A DNA stretch of 61,389 nt from Candidatus Desulfacyla euxinica (GCA_014382715.1 JACNJD010000124.1:1-61389), one strand, 5' to 3'; counted from the first letter of the stretch, positions 13,546 through 52,107 are shown. The notes: generated from the sequence alone by a model not told the origin. Translations and numbers: made by a program.

Positions 13546-13550
13546 GATAT

Positions 13551-27361: not shown

Positions 27362-27400
27362 GATATACCCTTTCAGATTCAAGTGTCAGTTACCACCTCA

Positions 27401-27485: not shown

Positions 27486-27504
27486 GCCCGCGATTCATCT
27501 TTGA

Positions 27505-27580
27505 GCCACCGTAGCTCAGTTGGTAGAGCACCTCACTCGTAATGAGGATGTCTGCGGTTCGACTCCGCACGGTGGCTCCA
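27505..27580 (+). tRNA. tRNA-Thr (anticodon CGU), copy 1, CCA encoded
   Basis: Folded by hand. Acceptor stem GCCACCG/CGGTGGC, D arm GCTC-AGTTGGTA-GAGC, anticodon arm CCTCA-CTCGTAA-TGAGG, T arm TGCGG-TTCGACT-CCGCA, discriminator T, then CCA. Confidence 0.9.
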
Positions 27581-27607
27581 GCAATATCAACAGGTTGCAT
27601 GTCTTTA

Positions 27608-27641
27608 TTGTCTGCGTATGTCTGTGTGTGTCTGCGGCTAA
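27608..27641 (+). repeat. 34-nt gtctg-word element, copy 2
   Basis: Sequence is ttgtctgcgtatgtctgtgtgtgtctgcggctaa. See 3012..3045. Confidence 0.7.
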
Positions 27642-27981
27642 AATATATATTTTCAATGGCAGCCATCAGTGACCAACTATTGATTCATTTTAAATGCCCC
27701 CAGCTCTTTTGGAGAAGAGTCTGCTTGTTTTCATTAGTTAGCAGATACCGTCGCCATTATAAGGCATTTCACAGGTGTGGGCAAAATCGGAAAAACAGCA
27801 AAGTCAATCCTGAAAGATGCTGATAGGGGTGTTTTGTTGATCTGAGAGTGCGTCTTCAAACCACACGTAAGCGGTAGTATTTCCGAATCGGGGCCGATCA
27901 ACACATTGTTGGCCCTGCACCCCTCTTTAAAGTAATGCTCTAATCAAGTTTTGATACCAATTACTGTTTGTTTTTGCATTT

Positions 27982-28023
27982 ATTGCGAAAAATATTGCAA
28001 TGATTGCAACGCCGTGGTATATA
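27982..28023 (+). promoter_or_regulatory. Candidate promoter with three ATTGCRA direct repeats
   Basis: TTGCAA at 27995..28000, a 17-nt spacer, then TATATA at 28018..28023. ATTGCGA occurs at 27982, and ATTGCAA at 27994 and 28003. Confidence 0.45.
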
Positions 28024-28065
28024 TTCTGCTCACTCTCAACCTAATTATGATTTACAGGGATCGAA

Positions 28066-28671
28066 ATGGCACAATCATTAACAGGTACGGAAATCCTCGA
28101 GCACTTGAAAATGCTCGCGGATTGGATCCGGGTCAAAAGTCCGGGTGAGCATTTTGAGTTGGTTGTGGTGGGAGGCGCGGCCATGGCGATCGAGGGTTTC
28201 AAAGACCAGACAAGAGATGTTGACGTCATTAGACCGCAGGTTTTGCCCGAGCCAATTATAAATGGCGTGACCCATATCGGCCGAATCAGACAGCTTAGTC
28301 CCGTTTGGCTCAATTCCGATGTCGCCAACATGCTTTTGAAAACGAAAAGTTCGAAGGGGTTGCCTTCATATTTCAATGAGATCTCTCGCAGCATTGAGGT
28401 GGGCAAGAATCTCAAAATCAGCCTGATCGGCAGACAGGCCCTGATATCCCTCAAATTGTATGCAGCCACGCCTTCTTACAGCAAGCACACCTCCGACATC
28501 AAGCGACTGCACGCCAATGCTGCGGAAATCACGAAGGCGGTCTCTTTTGTATTGGGCATCGACAGCACCGAAGTGAGAAAGGACGACTTGAATATCGTTT
28601 TGAAAGACCTGGGGTATGATTTCAATGACATCTGTAGCAAAATTGAAAGAGGAGACGGGCAGGATCGCTAA
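28066..28671 (+). CDS. Minimal nucleotidyltransferase-fold protein (AbiEii/DUF6036-like)
   Basis: ELVVVGGAAMAIEGFKDQTRDVDVI fits the hG[GS]-x(9-13)-DhDh pattern. It also has LISLKLYAA..TSDIKRL downstream. Confidence 0.55.
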   Translation: MAQSLTGTEILEHLKMLADWIRVKSPGEHFELVVVGGAAMAIEGFKDQTRDVDVIRPQVLPEPIINGVTHIGRIRQLSPVWLNSDVANMLLKTKSSKGLPSYFNEISRSIEVGKNLKISLIGRQALISLKLYAATPSYSKHTSDIKRLHANAAEITKAVSFVLGIDSTEVRKDDLNIVLKDLGYDFNDICSKIERGDGQDR

Positions 28672-28693
28672 GGTTGCGTGGGTGACGCTTGGT

Positions 28694-29419
28694 ATGCCAT
28701 TGAATTTCCAAATGATAAAGGAAAGGGTCGATGGCATCATCGACGTGGAGGCATTGATCATCGCCACCTTGCTGGTGATGGAAAGAGACCGTATCGCCAC
28801 CGACCTGCCTGCATGGATCAATCGATTTTCAAGCCTTATCAATTTTCAAAAGCTCAAAACCGTTTTCAGGAGACTGCCTGAGAAACACAGCGAATTGGTT
28901 GCCGCCAACCTGAACCAGGCCTATTTCACGAGCACGTCTAGGGCGTTCAGAAATGTTTTTGGCCTTAAGGCAAATGCTCTTGGAACTGCTGATGAAACCA
29001 TTTCACTGAGGACACGCAAAATCAACACGATCGAAAATGTGGCCCAGGCTTGTCTTATGATCAAGAACAGGCTCATTTACGGGACCGGATTTCGTGCCGA
29101 TTTGATAACTTTGACGCATATCGCGAACATCGGTATGAAAGGAACCGTGCTGGCAAGATTGATGAGTGCGGACAATTCAACTGTATCGCGTGTCTTGAAT
29201 GACTTAAAAGCCTCCCGGTTCTTGAATCAAGAAGGGGAGAGGGCAGGAGCTTTTGATCCGTATCCAGGAATGTTCATATCCGTAGCAACTGTATCGAATT
29301 TGTGCGAAATGATGGATGCCATGCAGTTTTCATTATATGACCTAAAAAAAGGGACTTTGGCAAACCTGAATCTCAGGCATGATGCCTTTGGCAGAAAAAT
29401 CTTGGAGAAGCTATTCTGA
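28694..29419 (+). CDS. Hypothetical protein with a C-terminal winged-helix-like segment
   Basis: Contains GTVLARLMSADNSTVSRVLNDLKASRFLNQEG. The start is either ATG 28694 or ATG 28616; the latter overlaps the upstream gene by 56 nt. Confidence 0.5.
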   Translation: MPLNFQMIKERVDGIIDVEALIIATLLVMERDRIATDLPAWINRFSSLINFQKLKTVFRRLPEKHSELVAANLNQAYFTSTSRAFRNVFGLKANALGTADETISLRTRKINTIENVAQACLMIKNRLIYGTGFRADLITLTHIANIGMKGTVLARLMSADNSTVSRVLNDLKASRFLNQEGERAGAFDPYPGMFISVATVSNLCEMMDAMQFSLYDLKKGTLANLNLRHDAFGRKILEKLF

Positions 29420-29518
29420 GTTATTTCTGTCTTTAAAACCCACATCCCTTAACCCTGCCTAATGCAGTTTGATAGCTACGTCCCCCTTTCCGTCCACAAT
29501 ACCTGCGGGGCTCATCAC

Positions 29519-29580
29519 GTTTAGGATTTAGGATTTTGGTCATTCGTATTTGTTTCGGATTTCGTGCTTCGTGCTTCGAA
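29519..29580 (+). repeat. tttaggat / ttcgtgc word array
   Basis: Sequence is gtttaggatttaggattttggtcattcgtatttgtttcggatttcgtgcttcgtgcttcgaa. It is related to 43714..43775 through shared ggtcat..cgtattt..ggatttt words. Confidence 0.65.
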
Positions 29581-29669
29581 TTTATAGGAAATCACATATG
29601 GAAATAATGCTCGTTACATCAGCACGTTATCAGTTTGAATGACGTGGCCCTGCCGCGATTCATCTTTGA

Positions 29670-29745
29670 GCCACCGTAGCTCAGTTGGTAGAGCACCTCA
29701 CTCGTAATGAGGATGTCTGCGGTTCGACTCCGCACGGTGGCTCCA
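29670..29745 (+). tRNA. tRNA-Thr (anticodon CGU), copy 2, identical to copy 1
   Basis: The 76 nt are identical to 27505..27580. The 17 nt upstream and 4 nt downstream are also identical. Confidence 0.9.
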
Positions 29746-29928
29746 GCAAAAAGCTAAACATTGAAATTATTTCAACTCGCATGTCCCCTATTGGACCTGT
29801 GTACATCTCGCCCCAACCCTGCCCAAATGGAAAAGCCTTGATTTCAGCAAAGAAACCATGTACTTTTCCCCAGTCACTGCCTTTAATTTGTAACATCTAT
29901 AAAGAGGGCTACCATGGACTGTAAACCA

Positions 29929-29964
29929 AACCCCATTTCTTAAATCAAGAGGTGGGGTTTTTTA
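29929..29964 (+). terminator. Intrinsic-terminator-like hairpin
   Basis: AACCCCA at 29929..29935 pairs with TGGGGTT at 29953..29959 around a 17-nt loop, followed by TTTTTTA. Confidence 0.45.
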
Positions 29965-30077
29965 TCTCAAGTGAGAGGTGGTGAGCCCTCAGGAACTTCT
30001 GATGGCCCAGAAAAATTTGAATTCATCAGAACTCACAAATTCGTATGAGGAGCCAAACAACTGAAGACAAGGAGGTT

Positions 30078-30614
30078 ATGATGTCATTGTTAACAGATCG
30101 TATGATTCGAGCAGCCAAGCTGGATTCAAATCTCTACGAGGAGATCGAAGCTGACAAGTCAGCCATGGGGCAGGCCATATGGGTGGTTGTTCTTTCGAGT
30201 GTCGCTGCAGGTGTTGGGAGCATCGGAACCATAGGGGTTTCCGGGCTCTTAATAGGGACAATAGCTGCTTTGATAGGGTGGTTTATTTGGGCATTCATCA
30301 CATACTTTGTTGGAACAAAAATCCTGCCTGAACCTCAGACAAACGCTGATTATGGTGAACTTTTGCGGACCATAGGTTTTTCAAGCTCACCCGGCGTTAT
30401 CCGTATTTTGGGTTTAATTCCATTTTTAGGCTGGATCGTCAATATCATTGCGGGAATATGGATGCTTGTTGCCATGGTCATTGCTGTAAGGCAGGCGCTT
30501 GATTACAAGAGCACGGGGCGTGCTGTGGCTGTGTGTTTGATCGGATGGGTTATTCAGCTCATAATTATCTCTGCCGTATTTTTTCTGTTCGGTGAGGGTG
30601 GACAGCCTTCATGA
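30078..30614 (+). CDS. Yip1-domain integral membrane protein
   Basis: After an N-terminal LDSNLYEEIEADKSAMGQA there are 4-5 predicted TM helices. AAGGAGG is upstream of the ATG at 30078 or 30081. Confidence 0.6.
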   Translation: MMSLLTDRMIRAAKLDSNLYEEIEADKSAMGQAIWVVVLSSVAAGVGSIGTIGVSGLLIGTIAALIGWFIWAFITYFVGTKILPEPQTNADYGELLRTIGFSSSPGVIRILGLIPFLGWIVNIIAGIWMLVAMVIAVRQALDYKSTGRAVAVCLIGWVIQLIIISAVFFLFGEGGQPS

Positions 30615-30842
30615 CAGGAAATAATTGCACCTCTTATCCTGTAACGTTTGTATGGCTACCGACTTCATCTCTTAGGGACCTGGTTAAGACATTATCTGTT
30701 TGGGGTCATATCCGACCATGACCATGTAAAGCAAGTAAACTCTCTGTACTGTCCATGCAAACAGCCTAATGTAAAAAGCGATTATTGATCTTCTCAAAAG
30801 AATACAAAGAATACCAAAGAATAACCTTTTGTAGAGGTAACC

Positions 30843-31493
30843 ATGAAGAAGTTAATATCCATTTCTCTTTAGATATTTGGGCTTCTGACCGTCCTGACAA
30901 TTGTTCTGGGCGGACTGGGACTCTACTTCGCTGAGAAATGGCTATTGGTAAATAAAGAACCGGTTAAATCCGACTTCATTGTTGTGCAAAATGGAGTACC
31001 TTATCGAGCAATTTATGGCGCAGATCTCTATAATAAGGGCTACGCACCGGCGGTCTATGTTGGAAAAGCAGAGGTTGATCCTCTTTTAACACTTTTGCAG
31101 GAGGAATATGGTATTTGTACCACGCTACAAGAAGAAGTTTACAAGAAAATTCTGGTCCAGAAAAATGTGCCTGAAAGTGTGATCCGGTTTTTTGGAAACG
31201 GGCACATTAGCACGGTAGAAGAAGCGGAAGCTTTAAAAAGAACTATCGGCGATAAGCCTGTTAAACTTTTAATTGTATCCTCTCCTTTAACCAGTAGGAG
31301 GGCCGCTATCATTTTTAGCGATGTCTTACCCCACGCCAAAATTTGCGTTGTCTCAAATCCATATGAGCAATTTACAGGAAAATGGTGGACTAATCGCAAA
31401 GTTGCGACCACAGTTGTACTTGAAACCATCAAATCTATTTTTTACAAACTTGGAGGAGCCTTCCGTTCCACTGACGCCCCTTCCTCGCAATAG
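30843..31493 (+). pseudogene. DUF218 (YdcF/SanA-like) gene interrupted by an in-frame TAG at codon 10
   Basis: ATG 30843 (AGAGG upstream) gives MKKLISISL, then TAG (30870..30872), then IFGLLTVLTIVLGGLGLYFAEKWLLVNKEPVKSDFIVV, all in one frame. The TM helix lies after the stop. The ORF-track start at 30945 is a TTG inside this frame. Confidence 0.6.
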
Positions 31494-31833
31494 TTTTCGT
31501 AAAGGTCAGAATATAATTCACAGCAGGAAAATCTCTTTAAACATGTAAAACTCTTTTTTCATTGACATATCTTATTGACCTGATTTAGAATTTGATATCC
31601 TTTGCCAATATTTGGTTTCGGGATATTCGGACCATAGGAGAACAGGTTCAACGGTATGTCAATTGCCCCCGGACAGGTACTATGGTTAGCTGAAAACCAA
31701 CCACAAAATGATGTCGCCATTAATTCTGTGTTCCAGACCCCATTTCTCACAACTGAAGGGTCGGATTCTTTGTCTCATTTGAAGAGAAACCGTTGATGGA
31801 TAATTCATTGACCACAAGAAAGGAGAGGAAATT

Positions 31834-32082
31834 ATGAAAGCAATAAGAATTCTGATCACAGGTCTAATTGCTATAAGTTTTGTTGCGGCCCCTGCCTTAG
31901 CTCAAGAAAACAGCACTTCAGACAAGGTCCTGCTATATCTGCCATCGAGTGTTTACAAACAGATACCTATTGAGGAAGCAAAAAGGATGAAAAACTATAG
32001 TTCTGCCGATCAATACCAAATATCAGTTACGCCAGATTATTCATCCAATAACCCCGGCACAGAAAAGCAAGAAAAAGATTAA
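31834..32082 (+). CDS. Small secreted protein
   Basis: AAAGGAGAGG lies upstream. Signal peptide is MKAIRILITGLIAISFVAAPALA-QE. Length is 82 aa. Confidence 0.6.
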   Translation: MKAIRILITGLIAISFVAAPALAQENSTSDKVLLYLPSSVYKQIPIEEAKRMKNYSSADQYQISVTPDYSSNNPGTEKQEKD

Positions 32083-32153
32083 CAGCCCGCAAATTGAACA
32101 TAAGACAGGTTAATGAGAATCACGATACACCCATGATTGTGGAGGATATCAAA

Positions 32154-33341
32154 ATGTCTAGGAAAATGGTCATTAATTCCCTCTTTGCCCTTGCATTAAT
32201 GCTTTTCTTTGTTTGCTCCCATGCAACTGCAGCATCCACCGTGGTTTTCTATACGGAAGCGAGTTGTTCGTCATTGACTCTCGTTTTTGGTGGCGTAACT
32301 CATTCCAGCAAGATAAGGTGTGCTTATGGTGCAGGTTTTAGTGGGGTTGCCGCCGGTACATACAGTTGGAAGGTCACCGGTTGTGGTATGTCCTGGTCAG
32401 GCACAAAAACCGTAAACGGTACATCAAGGTATAATTATGTTCTTTGTCCTCCCTCTGGAGGGAGCTGTTGCTCTACGGGATATGGCACAGGGGGTACATT
32501 CCTATGTTCCCAGTGCAGCAGCGCTACGACCACCACAACCACCGCTGCCACAACTACCACAACAACCACTGCCGCTACCACAACAACCACTTCCGCTACT
32601 ACGACAACCACCATCCCTTCGTCCACTTCGGCATTATTTGTGAGAAACTCATCCGGTACTGAGGTGTTTGGTGTAAGTGCCGCTGGTGCTATCACCACTG
32701 CTTCCAGACTTTTTACCAATGGTGCATCAGCAGTGGGCGCTGCGCCGTTTGTTCTTGGTCAGGATATTGGTAACAGAGGAATTGTCATCACAGACAAAGC
32801 AGCGACAAATCCCAAAAGAATCTATTTCGGATGGAATACCGGAGCCTCTATGGAATATGTGGAAATCTTTGCCCTCCAGGAAGGTGTGGCATACAAAAAC
32901 TTTGTTCTTGCACCGTTTGGCGGCAACGTCGGCATCAACACCAGTAGCCCTGCATATCCTTTACACATTGGAAACAGTGCACATGTCACTACAGGAGGGG
33001 TTTGGACAAACGCATCCAGTGGAGAATACAAAACAGACGTTAAACAGCTTTCAGCAGAGAAGGCCATGGATGCTTTAACACAGCTCAAACCGGTTGAGTT
33101 TGCCTATAAAGCTGATTCGCAGGAAAAACATGTAGGATTCATTGCGGAAGACGCCCCTGACATCGTGGCAACAAAGGACAGGAAGGGTATGAGTCCTATG
33201 GACGTTGTTGCTGTCCTGACCAAGGTTGTGCAGGAACAACAAAAATTCATCCGAGAACAGAAAGAAATCGTACAGAAACAACATAAAACCATAAGCGAGT
33301 TGTCAGAGAGAGTAGCAGAACTAAAAAATAAATTAAAGTAA
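32154..33341 (+). CDS. Secreted protein A: Cys-rich head, Thr/Ala tract, fibre stalk, C-terminal S74-type intramolecular chaperone domain
   Basis: GGAGGA is 7 nt upstream of ATG 32154. Signal peptide ends ..CSHATAAS. The Thr tract lies at 32523..32613. The C-terminus reads SSGEYKTDVKQL..LKPVEFAYK..HVGFIAEDAPDIV..MDVVAVLTKVVQEQQ, as in tail-fibre/endosialidase chaperone domains. Confidence 0.8.
   Translation: MSRKMVINSLFALALMLFFVCSHATAASTVVFYTEASCSSLTLVFGGVTHSSKIRCAYGAGFSGVAAGTYSWKVTGCGMSWSGTKTVNGTSRYNYVLCPPSGGSCCSTGYGTGGTFLCSQCSSATTTTTTAATTTTTTTAATTTTTSATTTTTIPSSTSALFVRNSSGTEVFGVSAAGAITTASRLFTNGASAVGAAPFVLGQDIGNRGIVITDKAATNPKRIYFGWNTGASMEYVEIFALQEGVAYKNFVLAPFGGNVGINTSSPAYPLHIGNSAHVTTGGVWTNASSGEYKTDVKQLSAEKAMDALTQLKPVEFAYKADSQEKHVGFIAEDAPDIVATKDRKGMSPMDVVAVLTKVVQEQQKFIREQKEIVQKQHKTISELSERVAELKNKLK
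32590..33229 (+). repeat. Long direct repeat, copy A (partner at 48838..49477, offset 16248)
   Basis: 32739..33193 looks 100 percent identical to 48987..49441 (455 bp). There is one mismatch at 33194. The 150 bp before the block are about 88 percent identical by eye. Confidence 0.85.
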
Positions 33342-33834
33342 AAACAAGAAAACTGGAGTCAAATTATCAATTCGTAATTATGTTTTTCTATACACTTATA
33401 GCTCTTCGCAGGCAACTTGATACTTAAGATTACCCTTATGATATGATGTTTTATTCATAAAACTCAATAGAGATCAAATAGCATCACCAGCTATGCCCGT
33501 AGGTTTATATTACTCCGAGCTTGCCTCATTAGTCGCCATCAATGCACCTATAACAGTATTTTGAGATAAATAGGGGGTTTGCGCTCTATTTATAACCCTT
33601 TGAAATTGTAAGTGATTCCGGGAAGGTCCGAACAATTTCACCTTACTTTGTCCTTTAGGTTTTTAATCTTGAAGAGAGTCATATTGATGCAAAGCGTGTT
33701 ATTGTTGGTTATAATGTGATTTGTATGGCTTGACTGGCAAATGGTACAGTGCAAATGCCTCTAAATAAATGGTATTTGCAACCTCTCATTACATGTGATA
33801 GTGATTTTCCCGTCTCTCATTGGTTCCTCCTGAT

Positions 33835-33852
33835 GCCCCTTTTGGGGCTTTT
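33835..33852 (+). terminator. Short GC hairpin plus T-run
   Basis: GCCCC-TTTT-GGGGC followed by TTTT. The stem is weak (5 bp). Confidence 0.3.
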
Positions 33853-33974
33853 CCGGAAGTGGAATCTAATCTATTTCTCGTCGGCACGGTAGAACCTCGT
33901 AGGGTCGCAGGGACATAGTCCGTGGTTTAATAAGGGCAATTATATTGAGAAATCTGCTGGTAAGATCTGCGAAC

Positions 33975-34949
33975 ATGGAGACAACGAATTATGAACGTCG
34001 CGACATTGTCCGTCGCTCAGCTGTTATTGTTCTGCACTATGGGAATCCTGAAATTACAAGCAGATGTATTTCTTCTATTCGTGCCTCTGACTTAGTACCA
34101 GATATCATATTGGTAGACAATGATCCCATTCATCGATATCTCCGACCAAGTGAGTTAGGCCTAACCTACCTGCCACAAGAAGTAAATTTGGGATTTGCTG
34201 GCGGGGTCAATCTCGGTATACGAAAAGCTATCAAATTGGGGAAGGAGATGGTCCTTCTACTCAATAACGATGTGGAAGTCGCCCCAAAAACAGTTATACG
34301 CCTTTTGGTGACATCCTATCTCCTTTCTTGCCTTGTCGGCGGAATAGAATTGGCGCTGGATAAGAATGGCGGGCACATGTCCAAAGTGATTTTCGCCGGT
34401 GGAGACTTGGTTTGGAAGGAGCTACCAGTTCGCCTAAGGCTCAGCCCAACATCCCATAAACAACCTTATTCTACAGGTTTTGTTCGTGGATCCTGCATGG
34501 CTTTGTCTTTAAAGATAGTTCAATCCATCGGTCTTATGGATGTCGGATTTTTTGCTTATGGAGAAGACGTCGATTATTGTATCAGAGCGTCCCAGGCAGG
34601 ATGGCCGCTAATGATTGACCCGCGGGCACAGCTTTGGCACAGGGGCTCGGCCAGTTGTGATGTCCGCAGAAGAAATTATTTAATGGCCCGAAACGGAGTG
34701 CGTTTGTTGCGGAGGTACACAATGGGGAAGATGTATATGCGCGGAATGATTTTAGGGTCCCTGGCTGCCTTATCCAGTGTTTTCAGGAAGGAAAGACAGG
34801 GAAAATTCAAGGGATTTATTGAAGGATTATTGTACAATCCAGGATACTATCTTCTGGGGCCTCAGAATTCCTTTCACGCTCCCAAGCCTGCCATAATATC
34901 GCCCCGGGGTCAACATGGCCCAACAGTCAATCGGAAAATCCATAGTTGA
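33975..34949 (+). CDS. GT2 glycosyltransferase (rhamnosyltransferase-like)
   Basis: Contains VIVLHYGNPEIT..ILVDND..GFAGGVNLGI..LLLNNDVEV. ATG 33975 is preferred over TTG 33945. Confidence 0.75.
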   Translation: METTNYERRDIVRRSAVIVLHYGNPEITSRCISSIRASDLVPDIILVDNDPIHRYLRPSELGLTYLPQEVNLGFAGGVNLGIRKAIKLGKEMVLLLNNDVEVAPKTVIRLLVTSYLLSCLVGGIELALDKNGGHMSKVIFAGGDLVWKELPVRLRLSPTSHKQPYSTGFVRGSCMALSLKIVQSIGLMDVGFFAYGEDVDYCIRASQAGWPLMIDPRAQLWHRGSASCDVRRRNYLMARNGVRLLRRYTMGKMYMRGMILGSLAALSSVFRKERQGKFKGFIEGLLYNPGYYLLGPQNSFHAPKPAIISPRGQHGPTVNRKIHS

Positions 34950-35930
34950 CCCCTTCCCGAAACGACCTACAGAAGGGATAAAATTTGGATTCGGGCTAAA
35001 TTCAAATAACCATCCGTCTTGCAGCTGAGTTGGTATTTCCAGCATAAAAGGGGAAGTAAAGACGGACTCGTGAAGGTTTTCACCCTTCGTATTTATGGGG
35101 GCCTTACGATGACCCATCAACTTTTTGCCCCTAAATTTCAAACCCTTAATGTATTTTTCTAAGAATATCCTGTGGGATATTTTGAAAATTGACCTTTTAT
35201 CTTTTTCATTTACTTTGTCACACTGGTTGTAGTGATGAGTTGCCTTAGCGTTTGGTTCCATGAAAAGAGTATAGCCTGCCTTTTTCAGACGCATAAAAAG
35301 ATCAGTGTCTTCAAAATAGAGAAAAAAGCGGGGATCAAAAAGCCCTTGGGCCATTAAGATAGACTCCCTTTTTAGGAGGACCACACTACCTGAAAGGTTT
35401 CTCATTTTTACAGGTCTGTCAGAGCACCAAAATTTTATGGAATAGTCCCTCCAAATAACACTAAAAAGCCTATTGATTATTGACTGAGGGCCAAATTTGC
35501 CCAAAATGGATTCAAAAAGAAATAATGCGGGAGGATAGGACGGCGGCAAAAGGTATGAGAGCCCGTCATCCCAAAAAACCCTTGGAGCAACGGCCCCCAC
35601 ATTTTCTCGAGCAGACAACAGCTTTTGTAAGCATACCAAACAACCTGATAATAATTTGGCATCTGGATTTATGAGAAGGATGAATTCGCCTGAAAACTGT
35701 TCAAAGGCTTGATTGCAGGCACGCCCAAAGCCGATATTTTGGGCATTCACTCTCAAAGTGACGACCGGAGGAAGACCCAATCGCAATTTTTGTACTTCCT
35801 CCTCATCCTCGCTGTTGTCTATTACAATTACATGAACAGGACCTATTGATGACGAGTTGAGGACTGATTGAGCTGCCTGCAGCGTTAGGCCTGCACTCTT
35901 GTAATTGATTATGATAGCAAGTGTTTCCAA
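34827..35930 (-). CDS. GT2 glycosyltransferase
   Basis: Contains AIIINYKSAGLT..VIVIDNSEDEE..GFGRACN..LLINPDAKL. Confidence 0.75.
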   Translation of the reverse strand: METLAIIINYKSAGLTLQAAQSVLNSSSIGPVHVIVIDNSEDEEEVQKLRLGLPPVVTLRVNAQNIGFGRACNQAFEQFSGEFILLINPDAKLLSGCLVCLQKLLSARENVGAVAPRVFWDDGLSYLLPPSYPPALFLFESILGKFGPQSIINRLFSVIWRDYSIKFWCSDRPVKMRNLSGSVVLLKRESILMAQGLFDPRFFLYFEDTDLFMRLKKAGYTLFMEPNAKATHHYNQCDKVNEKDKRSIFKISHRIFLEKYIKGLKFRGKKLMGHRKAPINTKGENLHESVFTSPFMLEIPTQLQDGWLFEFSPNPNFIPSVGRFGKGSTMDFPIDCWAMLTPGRYYGRLGSVKGILRPQKIVSWIVQ

Positions 35931-36056
35931 GGATAGTGTTTTCTCTGTAGCGGAAAAGCCTTCCTAAAAAGCGGTCAGTCATGTTAGTGCAAAAACCAAT
36001 TACAAAATTCATCCAGCAAATGTAACCGGTTTTAAAAGTAGTCAATGGGAAAACCA

Positions 36057-36728: not shown

Positions 36729-36801
36729 GGTAGGATCTCTCTGTTAACTTTCCAGGATGTAAAGTCGCGATTAAGTAATGAATAGCTCAACTAACGAAAG
36801 C

Positions 36802-44076: not shown

Positions 44077-45450
44077 ATGACAACTTCTCTTAGTATTCTT
44101 TGGCCAAAAAGTACAGCCCCAGATATTGAAGAGGTAACATTTTCTTATGATTTCTGTAGACGAGTCAGTCAGGAGTTATGCCAAAACATAGCTCAGAAAT
44201 ATTCATGGATAGACTATCCCGCTGACTGGAACCTTGCCCATGCCCTTTCGGAGGCCCAAAGTGAAATGCTTTTTGTGGTCAATAAACCCGAACTTGTGCT
44301 ATCTTCAATAGTCTTAAATCGTCTGACAAAGGGGCTTGAAAGTGGCTGTATAGCATGCGGTCCGGTTTACAATGAGACTTCGTTTTCCAGTCAGAAAGCC
44401 AAGCTACCTTTTCCATATGTCAATATCCCAACTTTTTTGGAGGCTTCTCAGGCTTTAGAGAGCAAAAAAAGGCGTGTTATTACCGTCCACGCCCTGGATC
44501 CAGCGTGTATATTATATCAGAGAGATTTTTTAAAGCGTGTTGACGCAAAACACCTTCTTACAGAGGCTTACAAGTCCATTCCTGGAACCATTAAGAAGAG
44601 CGTGGCAGTTGATTCAGGCGCCCTGGTTCATATATTCAGAAACTACTATGAAGACGAACCAGATGATCGGGTTGGTTTTGTTCCTCAAATGGTAAGATGT
44701 GCTATTGATATGGGATGGCATTTTTTACAGAAACTTGGCGCAAAACACCTTTTGTCAGAAAGCTACGTATCCAACTTTGAAAGAGCATTAAGAAAAAAAA
44801 CGTTAGCGGTACTTCACTTTTTAGGGAGTCAGAATAACTGGCAAAGAGATTGCATGATTCACCTTATTCCTGAAACAGTAAAGAACGTCTTAGATATTGG
44901 ATGCGCCAGTGGAGGATATGGGAAGAGGCTAAAACAAATTCGCCCGGAGATTTTTCTGAAGGGCATTGAGAGAAACCTGATAATGGCGGAATATGCCCGA
45001 AATTACTACGATGATGTCGTCGTCTCTTCAGTGGAATCTGCTAATCTTCCGGCCGGATTTGATCTTGTGAATTGTGGAGATGTTCTGGAACATCTCCACA
45101 ATCCCTGGGAAATGCTAAAACGCGTTCACCGCCTGCTCAGACAGGGAGGACATCTTGTGATTAGCATTCCTAATGTGGGACATTGGTCCATAGCCAGAGA
45201 TCTCCTTGATGGCAGATACCAATATGTTCCTATAGGATTGTTATGCGTATCACATATACGGTGGTTCACTGAATCTTCCATCCGACAAGCCCTGATGGAC
45301 GCTGATTTTGAAATCGAAATCTTATATAGGCAAAAAATTCCTCCCAGCCCTCAAGGCAAAGTATTCATTCATCATATGTGTGAAAAAGGCTATGGTGACA
45401 AGGAATCATTATTGACGAACGAATTTATTATTAGAGCCATCAAGCAATGA
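44077..45450 (+). CDS. Class I SAM-dependent methyltransferase with a ~250-aa N-terminal domain of unknown function
   Basis: VLDIGCASGGYG (motif I) and DLVNCGDVLEHL are in the C-terminal half. Confidence 0.65.
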   Translation: MTTSLSILWPKSTAPDIEEVTFSYDFCRRVSQELCQNIAQKYSWIDYPADWNLAHALSEAQSEMLFVVNKPELVLSSIVLNRLTKGLESGCIACGPVYNETSFSSQKAKLPFPYVNIPTFLEASQALESKKRRVITVHALDPACILYQRDFLKRVDAKHLLTEAYKSIPGTIKKSVAVDSGALVHIFRNYYEDEPDDRVGFVPQMVRCAIDMGWHFLQKLGAKHLLSESYVSNFERALRKKTLAVLHFLGSQNNWQRDCMIHLIPETVKNVLDIGCASGGYGKRLKQIRPEIFLKGIERNLIMAEYARNYYDDVVVSSVESANLPAGFDLVNCGDVLEHLHNPWEMLKRVHRLLRQGGHLVISIPNVGHWSIARDLLDGRYQYVPIGLLCVSHIRWFTESSIRQALMDADFEIEILYRQKIPPSPQGKVFIHHMCEKGYGDKESLLTNEFIIRAIKQ

Positions 45451-45546
45451 GTATGATCGGAGGAGGAGCCAAGCCATACAATCCTTATTTCCGATAAGGA
45501 ACATACGAGGCACAAACGAGATGAGTTACTTCAACTCACCAATAAA

Positions 45547-46638
45547 ATGAAAATTGCATATGTATTAGAATCCAGTGCGCTTTTTGGTGGCGTAAAAGTT
45601 GTTTTGCGCCAGGCAGAGGCTCTGCTTAAAAGAGGCCACCATTCTGTCGTAATTTCCCTTGAAAAATATCCGTCCTGGTTCGATGGCCATATCTTATTTA
45701 AAGAAGAAGATCCCTTATATCGAAAGGTGGTGAAGAAGCTTGATCAGACGATTGGAACTTTTCCAAGACTGACTCTGCCGTTGTATCTTAAATTGCTGAA
45801 GTCATTTGAACAGATTTTCGTAACCTCCCCAAGATTGCTCCTGATCCTGTATGATTGCCCTGATGTTCGCAATAAATTGTGGCACCTTACCCAAGGTTAT
45901 GAAGGCGATTGCCTGGAAGCTATTCCTCATATGCTTTTGCTTGAGAAGGCCTATTCCTTACCGGTACCTAAAATTACAATTTCAGAAAATTTGGCAGATC
46001 GATTGACCCTGATGTTTCCCGGGAATTATTTTTTTTCGGTGGGTCAGGGTTTAGAACATGACTACTTTTTTCCAAGAGGAACGAATTCTGATGAGAATTT
46101 CCAGAAAGTTGATCGAGTTTTCCTTGTGGGCCCTCTGAACACCTCCATCAAACAGATCCGTAAAGGCCTTCATGCATTTGACCTAGCCAGAAAACAGAAT
46201 CCAGCATTGAAACTTGTGAGAATATCAACCGTCGATACACAGTATGAAGAGGAAGCATTGATTGGCCCTATAAAAGAATACCATGTACACATAAGCCCGG
46301 CAAAAGTCGGTGAAGTGTTAAGATCCGGAAATGGGATACTTATCTCTCCTTCAGGCCCTGGTGAAGGATTCGGGTTATCTGCACTTGAAGCAATGGCATG
46401 CGGCGTCCCGACGGTACTTACAGATATTCCTAGTTACAAGTCATTTTCCGAGCCATGTGATTACGCGAAGTTTGTACCTGATGATGTCAATTTCTTGGCG
46501 ACAGCCCTTCGCTGCTTAATGGAAGATAGCCATGAGCGGCAGCGTTTGATAGTGAGAGGGCTTGAAGTCGCGGGTGAATTTTCTTATGACAGCGTGGCAA
46601 GGAACGTAGAAAAAATTCTTTTTAACAGTATGGAATGA
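45547..46638 (+). CDS. GT4 glycosyltransferase
   Basis: Contains PSGPGEGFGLSALEAMACGVPTVLTDIPSY. Confidence 0.7.
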   Translation: MKIAYVLESSALFGGVKVVLRQAEALLKRGHHSVVISLEKYPSWFDGHILFKEEDPLYRKVVKKLDQTIGTFPRLTLPLYLKLLKSFEQIFVTSPRLLLILYDCPDVRNKLWHLTQGYEGDCLEAIPHMLLLEKAYSLPVPKITISENLADRLTLMFPGNYFFSVGQGLEHDYFFPRGTNSDENFQKVDRVFLVGPLNTSIKQIRKGLHAFDLARKQNPALKLVRISTVDTQYEEEALIGPIKEYHVHISPAKVGEVLRSGNGILISPSGPGEGFGLSALEAMACGVPTVLTDIPSYKSFSEPCDYAKFVPDDVNFLATALRCLMEDSHERQRLIVRGLEVAGEFSYDSVARNVEKILFNSME

Positions 46639-46674
46639 CCAGTATATCGTGATTGGATTTTCTTCGAAATCATA

Positions 46675-47577
46675 ATGAAAACTTTGGATGTCAGCCTCAT
46701 TATACCCGTTCATTCAGGAATCAGCCGGTTGAATCGGCTTTTTTCTTCCCTGGATAGATTAGAAGTTAAAGATAAACGGGCTGAATGCATTTTGGTCGCG
46801 GATCGTTGTGATGAGGACATAGTTCGAAGGCTTGAATCCTGGTGCAGGTCAAAAACGTGCCGTCGCTGGGTGAGATGCATTGTCCTCCCCGTTGATTTTG
46901 GAAACCCAGACAAAGCTAGAAATTTAGGGCAAAAAAGGTCTGCTGGCAAGGTCCTTGCTTTTATGGATGATGACTGCCGACCCTCGCGTCAATGGTTGCT
47001 GTCGGGGTTGCGCCATATCAGAACCTGGAATGCTGTAACAGGTCCTGTATTGCATCCAAATACATGGCTTGGCATACTTGTGGCCGTCATGGACTTTGGG
47101 GAATTTCAAGCAACGGTTTCATCTGCTATCAAGAATGCGCCTGGATGCAATTTCTTTGTACGTTTTGAAGCAATTTCCGAGTACCCAATTCTTCCCGAAT
47201 ATGACTATGGTGGGGACCGCCTGCTTGCGGCCTCTTTGGCCCAAGTGGGCCCCATCTGGTATCACCCGGATGTGTCTGTTTTTCACGACCTCGCATTGGA
47301 TTGGAAGGCCATTTGGCCCAGAGAAATTCGTTACGGGGCGGTCGCCTGGGCTGCACGACGTAAAAACCCTTCCCTGCCTTGGAGTTCTCTCCTTAATTTT
47401 GGCCCTATAGCGCCCTTTATTGTTGTTTCTGGCCGCTTAATTATGGATCTTAAAAGACTTTGGTTTGGCAGATGGCCTTTGCCTTTGCTGCACAAGCTGT
47501 TCGTTACATTTAGTCTTTTTCCCGCCCGACTTGGCTACTTAATCGGTCTGATGCTCGCAAAGCATCGCAAGCTTTAG
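46675..47577 (+). CDS. GT2 glycosyltransferase
   Basis: Contains VSLIIPVHSG and FMDDDCRP (DxD). The C-terminus is hydrophobic. Confidence 0.65.
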   Translation: MKTLDVSLIIPVHSGISRLNRLFSSLDRLEVKDKRAECILVADRCDEDIVRRLESWCRSKTCRRWVRCIVLPVDFGNPDKARNLGQKRSAGKVLAFMDDDCRPSRQWLLSGLRHIRTWNAVTGPVLHPNTWLGILVAVMDFGEFQATVSSAIKNAPGCNFFVRFEAISEYPILPEYDYGGDRLLAASLAQVGPIWYHPDVSVFHDLALDWKAIWPREIRYGAVAWAARRKNPSLPWSSLLNFGPIAPFIVVSGRLIMDLKRLWFGRWPLPLLHKLFVTFSLFPARLGYLIGLMLAKHRKL

Positions 47578-47649
47578 CATCAATTTCCACATGCAGAACG
47601 TCTTGAGAATTTGGAGAGAACACGCCTATTCTTAAAAGGCTTGACTTGT

Positions 47650-47965
47650 TTAATAGAAATTACCGGTGAAATTTTTCCTGCGACCAAGATATGTCCTCGC
47701 AATGTGCATTGTACTTTTACCTGTGATATGTCCAACCACATTGGAAACTTCATATTTGGGGAATAGCAATCAACATATGGCTGTAATCCAAGTGGAGATG
47801 ACGTTCCAGAATCTCACAATCTGTCCTGCGGGCTATTTTCCGGAAAACTGCACTCAAATGAGTATTTACATCACCATAAATCTCTTTTTTCTGATATTTT
47901 GGTGCCCAAGTGAGATAATGCTTGCATTCTAATTTTGCATGGTTTAAACTCTTTATATCATTCAT
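47650..47965 (-). pseudogene. tnpA: IS200/IS605-family tnpA (Y1 transposase) relic, frameshifted and C-terminally truncated
   Basis: Reads ..KHYLTWAPKYQKKEIYGDV..CEILERHLHLDYSHMLIAIPQI and then a stop. The -1 frame continues PKYEVSNVVGHITGKSTMHIARTYLGRRKNFTGNFY and then a stop, so the ..FWARGY.. end is missing. Confidence 0.75.
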
Positions 47966-48164
47966 GTTACGTCTTTTCTTTTGTGACTTTTGAGCGGTTC
48001 ACATTAGGAGAGGTTGTCATAGACTCACGGAAATGTTAAAATCTAATAGTCAAGCAGCATAGCCGGGGGTTTACCATTTATTTAATCAATATAGACTCCG
48101 TCACGTGTGACTGGTTGATTTTTCGTTGAGCTGAAAAACCTAATGTGGAGGAGAAGAACACAGC

Positions 48165-49613
48165 ATGTTTAAGGTTATAAATAAAAAAGCGGGAGTCGCT
48201 GACATTGTGGCGGGGATATCGGTCACCATACTATGTATCCTCTTCCTTACCTGCTTCCCGGCTTTTGCAGAAACCCCACAAGGCGTTATATTGGAAATGG
48301 ATGCCTTTTTGGGGTCCCCTGTCCCTAACATTGAGGCGCTCCCAGATGAGATTGAGTTCGCAATTTACGACTCTGAGACAGCCACCACCGCCATTGCTAA
48401 ACAAATTTTCCCAAAAGGCAAATATACGACTGAGTTGAAGATCAGTAAATCCGGTAGGCCCACCCCGAGCCCCTTGGTCAGTTTCAGAGTAAACTTCTCT
48501 AATAAATTGACCTTTAATGACAAATCAAATGCCTCAGATCAAGTCAAAGGACTATGGCTCGATATTACCCTTGATGGAATCCAAGCGGGAACTAGAAAAC
48601 AAATATCAAACTCCACCTTAATTCGACTTCTCCTGGCAAGTAAGGTGCCTGTCTCAATTTATCGTAACTTTGCGTTCGGGGAAGATGAAAACCCAACTGC
48701 ATTTTCTTCCATTACTCCTACGAAACCACAAGACCGGAACATTGACGGAAACCATACCTATTATGCGTACTTTTCAGGAATGGCAGGTACTGGAGGCACT
48801 GGAACCACAACTTCCACCTCCACAACAACCACCACCACTTCCGCTACTACGACAACCACTATTCCTTCGTCCACTTCGGCATTATTTGTGAGAAACGCAT
48901 CCGGTACAGAGGTGTTTTCTGTAAGCCCTGGTGGTGCCATCACAACTGCTTCCAGACTTTTTACCAATGGTGCATCGGCAGTCGGTGCTGCGCCGTTTGT
49001 TCTTGGTCAGGATATTGGTAACAGAGGAATTGTCATCACAGACAAAGCAGCGACAAATCCCAAAAGAATCTATTTCGGATGGAATACCGGAGCCTCTATG
49101 GAATATGTGGAAATCTTTGCCCTCCAGGAAGGTGTGGCATACAAAAACTTTGTTCTTGCACCGTTTGGCGGCAACGTCGGCATCAACACCAGTAGCCCTG
49201 CATATCCTTTACACATTGGAAACAGTGCACATGTCACTACAGGAGGGGTTTGGACAAACGCATCCAGTGGAGAATACAAAACAGACGTTAAACAGCTTTC
49301 AGCAGAGAAGGCCATGGATGCTTTAACACAGCTCAAACCGGTTGAGTTTGCCTATAAAGCTGATTCGCAGGAAAAACATGTAGGATTCATTGCGGAAGAC
49401 GCCCCTGACATCGTGGCAACAAAGGACAGGAAGGGTATGAGCCCTATGGACGTTGTTGCTGTCCTGACCAAGGTTGTTCAAGAGCAGCAAGAGCTCCTCC
49501 GGGAGCAGCGTAAAATTGCACAGGAACAGGAGAAAACCATAGGCCACTTGTCTGAGAAAGTGGCGAAACTCGAAAGAAGGTTGAAGTCCAAAGAAAACTC
49601 TTTGTCTGAGTAA
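48165..49613 (+). CDS. Secreted protein B: different head, Thr/Ser tract, the same fibre stalk and S74-type chaperone domain as protein A
   Basis: GGAGGAG lies upstream. Signal peptide ends ..FPAFA-ET. The Thr tract lies at 48786..48861. About 215 aa at the C-terminus are near-identical to 32154..33341. Confidence 0.8.
   Translation: MFKVINKKAGVADIVAGISVTILCILFLTCFPAFAETPQGVILEMDAFLGSPVPNIEALPDEIEFAIYDSETATTAIAKQIFPKGKYTTELKISKSGRPTPSPLVSFRVNFSNKLTFNDKSNASDQVKGLWLDITLDGIQAGTRKQISNSTLIRLLLASKVPVSIYRNFAFGEDENPTAFSSITPTKPQDRNIDGNHTYYAYFSGMAGTGGTGTTTSTSTTTTTTSATTTTTIPSSTSALFVRNASGTEVFSVSPGGAITTASRLFTNGASAVGAAPFVLGQDIGNRGIVITDKAATNPKRIYFGWNTGASMEYVEIFALQEGVAYKNFVLAPFGGNVGINTSSPAYPLHIGNSAHVTTGGVWTNASSGEYKTDVKQLSAEKAMDALTQLKPVEFAYKADSQEKHVGFIAEDAPDIVATKDRKGMSPMDVVAVLTKVVQEQQELLREQRKIAQEQEKTIGHLSEKVAKLERRLKSKENSLSE
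48838..49477 (+). repeat. Long direct repeat, copy B
   Basis: See 32590..33229. Confidence 0.85.
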
Positions 49614-50068
49614 GACCGGATGAAGCCATCCAATGGTTAAGATTGAGCGGGAAAGTGTACCCCTTGGTTGCATAAATAAAATGGCAAAATGGGTTTAAAG
49701 ACTACAAATACAAGATATCCTTTCATTTTTTGTGTTTTACAGGAATCCTCTACAGGTGGGATCCTAAAAACAGGAAAAACAGCCATTTTATTTACCCTAC
49801 GGGAAAACCGAGGATACCCCATCTCCTGCGTTGTCGAGGGTTCGCGGTAAAGTACTACAGCTTCACCCTCGACGCCTAAGATCTGTGGCATCCTCGATTC
49901 TTGCAACGTTAGGGTGTAGTGTTTCACCACAGGATAAGGGGATCTCATTCTGTTGATCGACAAAGGGATTCTCAAGCAGTTATCGACTGCTGTTGTCAGA
50001 CCTGGTGACTGGGGAGGAGTTGAAACATTTGCAAGACCCGTCAAGAATTGTTAGTGGGGTTCAGGTCC

Positions 50069-50578
50069 ATGCATCCCTTAAATAATCTGACTTCCGTTTA
50101 TGTGATGTTGATTCTTCTCCTATTCGGTGTTCTTGCACCCTCTTGTAAAGCAAGTGACAAAAGATCTGACAGAGTCGAAAATTCTGCTTCGGCTGGTGTT
50201 GGTAACAAAGGGCTGACAATGAGGGTTCTGTGGACCGTTTCTGCCTATCATATAGGGAAAAATGCTGTCTGGGGAAAGGCCGAAGCACACAATATGCTTT
50301 TTAAGCCACTGGATATTAATACATCGAGCATCACCTTTGACGGTCAGACCTGCCACAATGTGACATTTGAAACCGAAATTGTCGATGCAGCGAAATATCT
50401 GGCAGAAAGGTACCAAACAACACCACAAACCATTGGTTTTGAGGAGAAGACCCTTAAAGTCATCAAAACTGACTGTTTTCTTCCGGGATTTTCAGAATAC
50501 ATGCGTTTGAGGGATAGAAGACTGATCGTTCCCATAAACGGCGTTTTGTTTTTCTTTGAGCCGGCGGTAAATCATTAA
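50069..50578 (+). CDS. Possible lipoprotein, unknown function
   Basis: Starts MHPLNNLTSVYVMLILLLFGVLAPSC. ATG 50069 is preferred over TTG 50048. Confidence 0.45.
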   Translation: MHPLNNLTSVYVMLILLLFGVLAPSCKASDKRSDRVENSASAGVGNKGLTMRVLWTVSAYHIGKNAVWGKAEAHNMLFKPLDINTSSITFDGQTCHNVTFETEIVDAAKYLAERYQTTPQTIGFEEKTLKVIKTDCFLPGFSEYMRLRDRRLIVPINGVLFFFEPAVNH

Positions 50579-50622
50579 ATCTGAATGCCCGAATGGTTTC
50601 GGAAAAAATAATGAGGTAAAAA

Positions 50623-51999
50623 ATGCGAAAAACCGTACTTGTTTTTCTCTCCATTTTGTTAGTTGTTTCGTTGAGTATCTTTCAAAAAACTGCGGCATCG
50701 GATGATTATGCGGATAATGAACCTGTTGACTTAATGTTACCGATACCATTGACCCCCGAGATGTCTGAGGATGGAAAAGCTTTATACAATGCTGTCCCCC
50801 TGATAGCTGTCGTGGATGATCTCAACCCCTCGGTCCTGAGAAAAATCCCTGCCCCTGCCCGTTTTTTAGACCAGCCTGAGGCTGCGACCTCCAGCTTTTC
50901 GATAACATATATCGCAAACGGTGGTGCCGACGCCTGGGGTGAACGGTGCTATACATTTCCAGAAGACGCGAGGACCGCCTTTGATTATGCAGCCAGCATC
51001 TGGGTCAATACCCTCAACTCCGACGTCCCCATAACAATTAATGCATGCTGGGCCGAGCTGGCGTCAGCATCGACATTGGGATATTCAGGCGGCCAGCCTC
51101 TACGCAGGGATTTTTCGGGTGCTACACGATCCAACACCTGGTATCAAGGTTCTGTCGCCAACGCCCTGAATGGCTCCGACCTGGATCCATCAGATTTTGA
51201 CATGCACATAACCTATAACAGCCTCTTTGACTGGTATTACGGAACAGACGGCAATACTCCCTCGACTCAACATGATTTAGTAACGGTTGTACTGCACGAG
51301 ATGTGCCATGGTTTGAACTTCTCCGGATCGATGAGTTACTCGGGAGGCAGTGCCAGCTGGGGCTACAGCACCGGGTATCCGAACATTTATGATGTGTTTA
51401 TGAAGGATGGTTCCGGCACGCAGCTCATCGATACAAGTTCTTACACAAACGGGTCCACAGCCCTCGGCAGTGCTGTGACGTCGAATGATATATGGTTTCA
51501 TGGGACCAAGGCAATGGCGGCCAATGGCGTTCAACGGGTGAAAATGTACGCCCCGTCTACCTGGCGCTCAGGATCAAGTTATTCTCACCTTGACTATGAT
51601 ACATTCAACAATACCTCAAACCAGCTGATGGTATATGCCATAAGTGCTGGTGAATCCGTTCACGATCCCGGGGCAGTTAACGAAGGTCTGCTGCAAGACC
51701 TGGGTTGGACTGTCGATTCAACATCAAATAGTTATGTGGATCCTGCGGGTTCATGCGGCGGCAACACTCCCTGCTATACCACAATCCAGACAGCAGTCAA
51801 CGCGGCCAGCACCGGGACTACCATAAAGATTGTTCAGGGGGACTACAACGAAAATGTCCTCCTAAGCACATCCAAACAGGTAACCCTTTCCGGCGGATGG
51901 AATACTTCATACACGACCCAGTCATCAAACTCATCCGCCAATTCAATCGGCGTAAGTGCGGGCACCCTTATCGCCGACAAGGTGGGCGCACAGGGTTAG
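50623..51999 (+). CDS. Secreted HExxH zinc-metalloprotease-like protein with the C-terminal CGxxTPCY..QGDY..GGW module
   Basis: Has a signal peptide. VVLHEMCHGLNFSG is an HExxHxLxF motif reminiscent of the leishmanolysin type (from memory). The last 85 aa or so match the C-terminal region of the SBBP protein. Confidence 0.6.
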   Translation: MRKTVLVFLSILLVVSLSIFQKTAASDDYADNEPVDLMLPIPLTPEMSEDGKALYNAVPLIAVVDDLNPSVLRKIPAPARFLDQPEAATSSFSITYIANGGADAWGERCYTFPEDARTAFDYAASIWVNTLNSDVPITINACWAELASASTLGYSGGQPLRRDFSGATRSNTWYQGSVANALNGSDLDPSDFDMHITYNSLFDWYYGTDGNTPSTQHDLVTVVLHEMCHGLNFSGSMSYSGGSASWGYSTGYPNIYDVFMKDGSGTQLIDTSSYTNGSTALGSAVTSNDIWFHGTKAMAANGVQRVKMYAPSTWRSGSSYSHLDYDTFNNTSNQLMVYAISAGESVHDPGAVNEGLLQDLGWTVDSTSNSYVDPAGSCGGNTPCYTTIQTAVNAASTGTTIKIVQGDYNENVLLSTSKQVTLSGGWNTSYTTQSSNSSANSIGVSAGTLIADKVGAQG

Positions 52000-52066
52000 G
52001 GCCTCGCCATAAAATTGAACGTCATTTTTCAGTCAGGCTTCATACCACTTTTGACTGGAGGCTCTG

Positions 52067-52107
52067 TGAGGATGTCTGCGGTTCGACTCCGCACGGTGGT
52101 TCCAGCA
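52067..52107 (+). other. 41-nt copy of the tRNA-Thr 3' end (att-like remnant)
   Basis: tgaggatgtctgcggttcgactccgcacggtggTtccagca compared with tRNA positions 27543..27583. There is one mismatch (52100). A hairpin (CCGACC 52111..52116 / GGTCGG 52124..52129) and a T-run follow. Confidence 0.8.

Follow-up and report, generated by a model that had tools for sequence, protein, structure and literature searches.

A 61,389-nt stretch of the Candidatus Desulfacyla euxinica genome (GCA_014382715.1 JACNJD010000124.1:1-61389), hereafter the window, carries two tRNA-Thr(CGU) genes and, 22.4 kb downstream, a displaced piece of the 3' half of the same tRNA. We consider it likely that horizontally acquired DNA has left here a fossil array of 24.5 kb, devoid of a recombinase, at the 3' end of the chromosomal tRNA-Thr(CGU) gene of this uncultured Desulfobacterota bacterium. 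Three units were distinguished within the array: E1, a cassette of 2,068 nt (27585..29652, + strand); E2 (29750..31520, + strand); and E3 (31521..52066), a strain-variable surface island of 20.5 kb. L-numbers (L006, L021, L054 and so on) denote the labelled loci and contigs that were compared with the window.

Both ARAGORN and Rfam called tRNA-Thr(CGU) twice, at 27505-27580 and 29670-29745. Each gene lies in a 97-nt block on the + strand (copy 1, 27488..27584; copy 2, 29653..29749) composed of a 17-nt leader, the tRNA and GCAA, and a repeat finder showed the two blocks to be identical (97/97 nt, 100% identity). E1 is bounded by copy 1 on the left and by copy 2 on the right, and copy 2 serves at the same time as left junction of the older island. 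The displaced 3' fragment (52067..52107, + strand) marks the right junction of the island and matches the tRNA at 40/41 nt, the single mismatch being a C-to-T change in the acceptor strand. The two 97-nt blocks and the 41-nt fragment had been described in an initial annotation of this DNA, which these three tools confirmed. A 20-nt core of the tRNA occurs exactly three times in the window and was not found in 100 shuffles, and neither the core count nor relaxed searches revealed further tRNA-Thr fragments in the window. A hidden fourth fragment at the E2/E3 boundary was also considered and rejected, none being found with up to 3 mismatches. Public gene calls start nadE 53 codons further upstream than our call, at an ATG that lies within the tRNA fragment (window 52072-52107) and gives a product of 312 aa, and the Pfam NAD_synthase match begins only 6 residues past the ATG at 52231.

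Only one of the two tRNA-Thr(CGU) copies carries the native promoter. The promoter-like site of the native gene (27457..27485, + strand; TGGACA-17-TATATT, 10/12 matches) precedes copy 1 and is also kept upstream of the single tRNA in the relative L006, in agreement with the promoter first proposed for this copy. On the other hand, the proposal that a hairpin and T-run follow only the fragment was incorrect: the hairpin after the fragment (52111-52129) is modest (-10.4 kcal/mol, z -3.1), with the T-run beginning 9 nt beyond, whereas a terminator-like hairpin behind tRNA copy 2, at 29928-29960, is the stronger of the two (-19.7 kcal/mol, z -4.2). The sequence at 52108..52201 (+ strand), which holds the weaker hairpin and then the T-run, is the ancestral tRNA-downstream sequence, being homologous to the sequence right after the intact tRNA in relatives with an empty site.

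The empty site was identified by a pyrF scan of a genome collection, which returned metagenome-assembled genomes (MAGs) labelled Desulfobacteraceae and Desulfatiglandaceae, as the closest MAGs are, with pyrF beside a single tRNA-Thr(CGU). In L006, with a pyrF product of 85% amino-acid identity, alignment pairs the promoter region with the DNA that precedes copy 1, and the ~135 nt past the tRNA with the window sequence past the fragment. The same empty-site arrangement was found in two Joint Genome Institute (JGI) contigs, L052 and L053. Since the site is uninterrupted in these three loci, an insertion of ~24.5 kb has separated the tRNA body from its original 3' half and the terminator. The comparison shows tRNA-Thr to have received apparently foreign DNA in its 3' half, as the initial annotation had supposed; that annotation had also named identical content in all relatives as an observation that would speak against insertion, and the relatives do not all share the content. 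Homology between L006 and the window stops ~30 nt before nadE (window 52201-52231 vs L006 454-600), and a gene for a PFL-like glycyl-radical enzyme is found there in L006; a second, unrelated rearrangement would therefore have taken place just to the right of the island.

Relatives at 93-96% nucleotide identity were obtained by scanning metagenomes with the junction of the fragment and its downstream sequence. L054, a 97-kb contig, has pyrF, one tRNA, E2, a 49-nt fragment and nadE, without E1 and without E3, and L056 has the same right junction as L054, with E3 absent. L055 has pyrF, one tRNA and E2, after which 31 nt from the start of E3 and ~110 nt from the end of the 458-aa gene, fused to each other, precede the 49-nt fragment and nadE, again without E1; this junction shows what appears to be a deletion remnant, E3 having once been present in that lineage, which is ~6% diverged. 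The 49-nt fragment, found in L021, L054, L055 and L056, starts at ACTCGTAA, in the anticodon loop. The window fragment starts 8 nt later, which was scored as erosion, so that the 41 nt that had been regarded as the original displaced fragment are a shortened form of an original 49 nt.

Since L054 and L055 have the island with its 49-nt fragment and lack E1, the island is the older and E1 the later insertion. These loci, at 94-96% identity, place the apparent gain of E1 later, on the branch that gave rise to the species-level group of the window, and they support at least two separate insertion events. Two integrations had been proposed before, with the cassette as the first; the number stands as a minimum and the order is reversed. 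A hint for the lateness of E1, which we grade as weak, is that the last base of the 97-nt identity (GCAA) fits the island junction and not the ancestral GCAC. In the group B strains (L026 and L027) the leader of copy 1 has the G-allele, as in the E1-free relatives, and that of copy 2 has A, the two copies differing at leader position 17 and tRNA position 5; these alleles fit an arrival of the 5' part of copy 2 together with E1.

The inserted DNA also differs from its surroundings in composition. Its overall GC content is 0.435, compared with ~0.48 outside (0.488 and 0.476 in the two flanks), with 0.454 in E1, 0.43 in the remainder of the insert (E2 0.428, E3 0.434) and a minimum of 0.355 at 42-44 kb. 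The tetranucleotide distance to the flank profile was 0.32 inside and 0.22 outside (Mann-Whitney p ~1e-9), with steps at ~27.5 kb and ~52 kb. The island is thus significantly AT-richer than its flanks, as had been noted, but by less than the 30-45 vs 50-60 percent GC sampled at that time.

In the island open reading frames (ORFs) that were scanned, Pfam detected no recombinase, integrase (PF00589 included), resolvase, excisionase or relaxase domain, and none of these was found in six-frame translations of all nine island intergenic gaps or in the remaining scanned ORFs of the 61-kb window. The sole hit of this kind was a truncated IS200-type (Y1_Tnp) transposase relic of 71 aa (47750..47965, - strand; profile positions 4-61 of 121). 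Both the relic and the lack of recombinase, excisionase and relaxase genes had been recognized in the initial annotation. Likewise, none of the island variants examined contained relaxase, type IV secretion system, replication or integrase remnants.

Based on these results, we propose that the first event, in the common ancestor of the window and the relatives at 93-96% identity, was a crossover between a circular element and the anticodon-loop part of the tRNA gene. The element's own copy of the 3' half would have restored the tRNA, and the original 49-nt 3' half would have been displaced to the far end, beside the old terminator. The insertion itself is seen in the empty-site comparison; its mechanism we infer from the footprint, which suggests a tyrosine integrase of the anticodon-loop sublocation class that has since been lost. 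The island (E2 and E3) then decayed and diversified, as seen in co-occurring strains, some of which keep E3 while others lack it, have it truncated or have lost its interior through recombination between the two S74 genes; in the window lineage the sequence next to the fragment was apparently replaced, leaving 41 nt. The 2.07-kb E1 entered later. We suggest that it came as a circle with a full copy of leader and tRNA, and that a single crossover within the 97-nt homology left two tRNA-Thr genes, identical and intact. This crossover may have been the work of a recombinase supplied in trans, a suggestion we put forward at somewhat less than even confidence. The elements of the array are now unable to move by themselves, and the term fossilised, used in the initial annotation, suits the large island, which predates the 94-96% identity split and is free of integrase in every variant seen.

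Several observations weigh against this proposal. No trace of an integrase was found, the site-specific step being deduced from its footprint alone. To the left of the fragment, the window and L055 have ~80 nt of unrelated sequence, which could indicate two related but independent islands and not erosion. The E3-less junction (…CACA[A/G]TAGCGAAAACAG followed by the 49-nt fragment) does not have the exact sequence that a microhomology deletion in the E3-bearing form would give, and E3 could therefore be a separate later insertion instead of an original part of the island. The absence of E1 in L054 and L055 could reflect secondary loss by recombination between the 97-nt repeats. Finally, identity over the 17-nt leader is unexpected for an independently evolving phage-type attachment site (attP).

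The question of E3 bears on whether the island is a single unit, as was first assumed. An old, tRNA-linked insertion it is, but its content proved to be a strain-variable mosaic of E2 and E3. L021 (99.2% identity, 46-kb contig) has tRNA, E1, tRNA, E2 and the 49-nt fragment, without E3, whereas E2 was found in all relatives at ≥93% identity with contigs reaching the region. E3 forms a contig of its own (20,783 nt, 31405-52187) in at least five samples, four of them sharing one contig, as is expected from a presence/absence bubble in assembly. It is a reasonable, if less favored, alternative that E2 and E3 were acquired separately, E2 with the 49-nt fragment being original and E3 having entered later at the E2/fragment boundary, from which it is now being lost. 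The E2-only state in three lineages (L054, L056 and L021), more distant ones included, agrees with this, as do the bubble behavior of E3 and the GAAAA-like sequence at both E3 ends, which is compatible with a short target duplication. However, the E3 ends have no tRNA fragment, inverted repeats or transposase, L055 points to E3 being present already in a ~6% diverged lineage, and the two units are alike in composition (GC 0.428 vs 0.434).

The entry of E1 can be explained with comparable plausibility, though again at under even confidence, by Campbell-type homologous recombination, in which a circle that arose in a sister strain through recombination between repeats, carrying the two-gene module of E1 and a leader-and-tRNA copy, would have integrated through a single RecA crossover. 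The block of identity takes in 17 nt of non-functional leader and ends sharply. Because this leader is perfectly identical in both copies, the E1 donor would have come from the same population; it differs by 1/17 nt in relatives at 95% identity and by several nt in the 85% relative. The initial annotation had suggested that the duplication of leader and tRNA implied an attP with a full tRNA copy, which is possible, and Campbell-type recombination explains the leader identity equally well. It is also consistent with the absence of a recombinase. The 97 nt are short for RecA, though sufficient. Four TGTCT(G/T) motifs with ~10-nt spacing (27600..27636, + strand), which open the left end of E1 directly behind tRNA copy 1, point the other way, as they resemble protein-binding sites. 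Two of the four are TGTCTGCG, identical to the variable-loop/T-stem sequence of the tRNA, and this 8-mer occurs 5 times in the window against ~1.1 expected; the motifs may be protein-binding sites.

The two-gene module itself (27972..29419, + strand) was found as a conserved DNA unit with 68-81% identity and sharp ends in unrelated genomes, in contexts without tRNAs. It comprises a gene for a 201-aa DUF6036-like nucleotidyltransferase (28066-28671, + strand), with a Pfam match below threshold (21.4 bits vs a cut-off of 23.6), and an overlapping gene for a 267-aa winged-helix protein (28616-29419, + strand) with a weak Crp/MarR-type helix-turn-helix match. The 267-aa family has at least 222 metagenomic proteins, unnamed except for one automatic CRP-like label, and in 33 of 36 members the Crp/MarR-type winged helix can be recognized. 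An AlphaFold model of this protein based on 36 homologues was too poor for use (predicted local distance difference test score of 56). Neither cassette protein matched PADLOC, NCBIfam or PHROGs, PDB sequence and profile searches with them gave nothing meaningful, and the module protein family is absent from IMG/VR and from PLSDB plasmids. The two genes are paired in most contexts; in L047 and L057 the 201-aa gene is interrupted or no full ORF was called. In L047 (6567-7059 / 9827-10803) the nucleotidyltransferase gene is split by a ~2.8-kb insertion with a DruA-domain gene and a 519-aa gene, and HipA and IS66-like genes are found near the split module. Neighbors of the module are often toxin-antitoxin (TA) or defence genes (YafQ/RelB, TumE/MarR, Gp49, HipA, DruA, bAvd and RadC), and the module looks like a TA or defence pair, as predicted from its domains and contexts, which would act in the manner of AbiE.

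Elsewhere the module is frequently bracketed by long direct repeats that have no common attachment (att) site, which also agrees with Campbell-type entry. In L046 the repeat is of 81 nt with 81% identity (8996-9076 / 10861-10941), copy A being the 3' end of the upstream gene, and in most of L060-L069 repeats of 67-135 nt with 86-90% identity were found, for example in L063 (43-177 / 1916-2050 and 171-264 / 2802-2894) and L060 (3208-3274 / 5838-5904). The repeats differ by locus, being pieces of the 3' ends of neighboring genes or terminator-containing spacers, which argues against a common attC site as in an integron cassette array or a cluster of attC sites lacking integron-integrases (CALIN); no IntI-type match was found in the window. 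Such locus-specific repeats hint at a repeat-mediated movement of these cassettes. However, several contexts (L048-L051, L057 and L058) have no flanking repeats, which tells against Campbell-type entry.

Variation among strains bears on whether the array could still be mobile, E1 and/or the island being cis-mobilizable elements that are excised and integrated by an integrase from another part of the genome or from an element that comes in. The repeats are intact (97/97 and 40/41 nt), E1 is precisely absent in relatives, and the behavior of cis-mobilizable elements (CIMEs) is documented (PMC5704250). Nevertheless, we regard continued mobility as unlikely, since no structural variant seen has a tRNA-repeat recombination junction and, among the contigs examined, none shows tRNA-E1-tRNA followed by the terminator or a circular junction. 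In addition, the right-hand site of the window lacks 8 nt over the anticodon loop, the crossover point of integrases of this class, and the core sequence was not found in IMG/VR. Simple excision between the repeats was likewise considered as the source of the strain variants and rejected, because the junctions do not fit. Other differences between strains lie within the island or outside it. In L041 a recombinant S74 gene joins 32556 to 48804, with deletion of the whole ~16-kb glycosyltransferase block, and L024 and L045 have another gene in place of the DUF218 gene. L023-L027 have a different left flank, which begins within a 9-nt tandem repeat located 70 nt before the promoter.

The module could also be a minimal self-inserting cassette, one of its proteins promoting entry at the 3' ends of tRNA or protein-coding genes, with target duplications of 70-135 nt. 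If true, this would account without a classical recombinase for the duplication of leader and tRNA as well as for the repeats of L046 and L060-L069, but we judge it very improbable.

An assembly artefact, with the tRNA repeat duplicated or collapsed by the assembler, is hardly credible: contigs of several samples do break near the repeats (~27437, 31405 and 52187), but these breaks coincide with real strain variants, the whole array is contiguous in a 78-kb contig (ERZ24794672 NODE_514), its junctions recur at 99.7-100% identity in several independent assemblies from different studies (exact-protein look-ups), and unique sequence is consistent on both sides of each repeat. Such an artefact had been named at the outset as grounds for discarding the insertions, and the agreement among independent assemblies does not bear it out.

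The array lies between housekeeping genes. The left flank holds dprA, topA, a Tpt1/KptA-like gene and pyrF (26642..27382, - strand), the left chromosomal neighbor, whose linkage to tRNA-Thr is kept in relatives. The first chromosomal gene past the island is nadE, encoding NAD synthase (52231..53010, + strand), and it is accompanied in the right flank by a PTPS-related/tetratricopeptide repeat (TPR) membrane protein, a GT2 and others. E2 contains, besides the hairpin at 29928-29960, genes for a Yip1-domain membrane protein (30045-30614) and a DUF218 protein (30945-31493). E3 is a cell-surface glycan and fibre gene cluster, as judged from its predicted products: an 82-aa secreted protein, secreted proteins of 176 aa and 458 aa, two Peptidase_S74/tail-fibre-like proteins with signal anchors (32094-33341 and 48165-49613), ~9 glycosyltransferases, a sulfotransferase, a PIG-L deacetylase fused to GT2, an S-adenosylmethionine (SAM) methyltransferase and a TMTC/TPR membrane protein (41862-43616), in addition to the IS200 relic. 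A PHROGs scan of eight island proteins gave matches only in the C-terminal tail-fibre/S74 chaperone regions of two of them, and the tRNA 3' core had no exact match among IMG/VR viral contigs. A prophage or phage satellite was rejected, as no phage genes, whether for capsid, terminase, portal or replication, were found except the tail-fibre-like C-termini. The two S74 genes share a repeat (32556-32855 vs 48804-49103) of 300 nt extending to ~800 nt; its two copies are 92% identical in the window strain vs 86% in others, which suggests gene conversion.

Some further features were observed in and around the array. The 9-nt tandem repeat, (CTTTAGTCA)n, lies at window 27400-27440 and L023 7533-7700, and Logan contigs break there too; the left flank of L023-L027 has 23S_rRNA_IVP, NUDIX and tRNA-Pro(CGG) genes in place of pyrF. 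Several contigs end at the equivalent of window 52187. In L021 the hairpin and the T-run that follow the fragment are separated by an insertion of ~180 nt (13005-13195), which resembles a miniature inverted-repeat transposable element and has 13-bp terminal inverted repeats (CTCGGCAAAAATA); no copy of its terminal repeat was found in the window. A sequence of ~65 nt past the nadE stop (53009-53076) recurs with 84-87% identity in variant E2 (L024 4262-4326 and L045 315-371) and may be a dispersed intergenic repeat. A second accessory-looking stretch lies at 13200-16810 (GC 0.45-0.47), with genes for HipA (13551-14840), a PIN-domain ORF (14982-15377, - strand), a HIT protein and an HNH endonuclease (16283-16807, - strand).

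The array illustrates how surface glycan and fibre variation is organised at a tRNA hot spot, at strain level, in uncultured Desulfobacterota. Public metagenomes hold natural alleles of the locus: the empty site, E2 only, E2 with an E3 remnant, and E1, E2 and E3 with or without the glycosyltransferase block. Old islands of this kind are overlooked by island finders that require an integrase, and since the length of the eroding fragment and its neighbors vary, one genome alone misleads on the original att site and on the order of events. E1, in turn, doubles the number of tRNA-Thr(CGU) genes. Only one point could prove new: long direct repeats, different at each locus, flank the DUF6036/winged-helix module time and again.

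Two known systems are comparable to E1. AbiE-type (type IV) TA systems consist of a winged-helix antitoxin and a nucleotidyltransferase toxin, and the E1 module is likewise an overlapping two-gene operon for a nucleotidyltransferase-fold and a winged-helix protein, located among TA and defence genes. Unlike AbiE, the module has no AbiEi/AbiEii Pfam, PADLOC or NCBIfam matches, its gene order and sizes differ, and the nucleotidyltransferase call is below the Pfam cut-off; membership in AbiE was rejected because the AbiEi/AbiEii domains were not found. SLP1, reportedly described by Vogtli and Cohen in 1992, is said to be a 17-kb self-transmissible element with int and xis, whose att identity of 112 bp covers the whole tRNA-Tyr gene. 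As in E1, the identity block would exceed the tRNA gene and integration would give two full copies; E1 differs in having 2 kb, two genes and no recombinase.

For the array as a whole, an intact tRNA gene with a displaced fragment, the anticodon-centred class of sites and tandem arrays are standard (PMC4383910; bioRxiv 10.1101/2020.11.02.365908). As in the islands collected by Islander (PMC4383910), an intact tRNA is followed downstream by a 3' fragment in the same orientation, the crossover sublocation is recognizable (a 49-nt fragment starting in the anticodon loop), the site is uninterrupted in relatives (L006, L052 and L053), the composition is foreign and the accessory cargo concerns the surface. 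The array differs in its fragment, eroded to 41 nt, in its content, mosaic between strains, and in having no tyrosine integrase in or overlapping the island, for which Islander's filter would reject it. Decayed att-flanked elements and their accretion are known from CIMEs and the ICESt1/CIME model (PMC5704250), and tandem integration into one tRNA gene from the integrative and conjugative elements (ICEs) of actinomycetes, AICEs (PMC2440964). The array shares with these the loss of integration genes, the retention of att-like repeats (attL and attR, at sequence level, without integration or transfer genes) and a stack in direct orientation at one tRNA with a shared internal site; unlike them, this internal site is a complete tRNA with leader and not a fragment, and no conjugation, relaxase or integrase remnants indicate decay from an ICE or an integrative and mobilizable element (IME). 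In Prochlorococcus, tRNA-adjacent variable islands contain degenerate elements and scattered partial tRNAs (bioRxiv 10.1101/2020.12.28.424599). There too a tRNA acts as hot spot, newer insertions push older ones inward and content varies among co-occurring strains, but those islands, in a different phylum, are fed by integrase-carrying tycheposons, none of which was found at the array. Because the integrase expected by Islander is missing and ICE/IME remnants are absent, the locus is best called an integrase-less fossil island array, which is of an already known type and otherwise ordinary.

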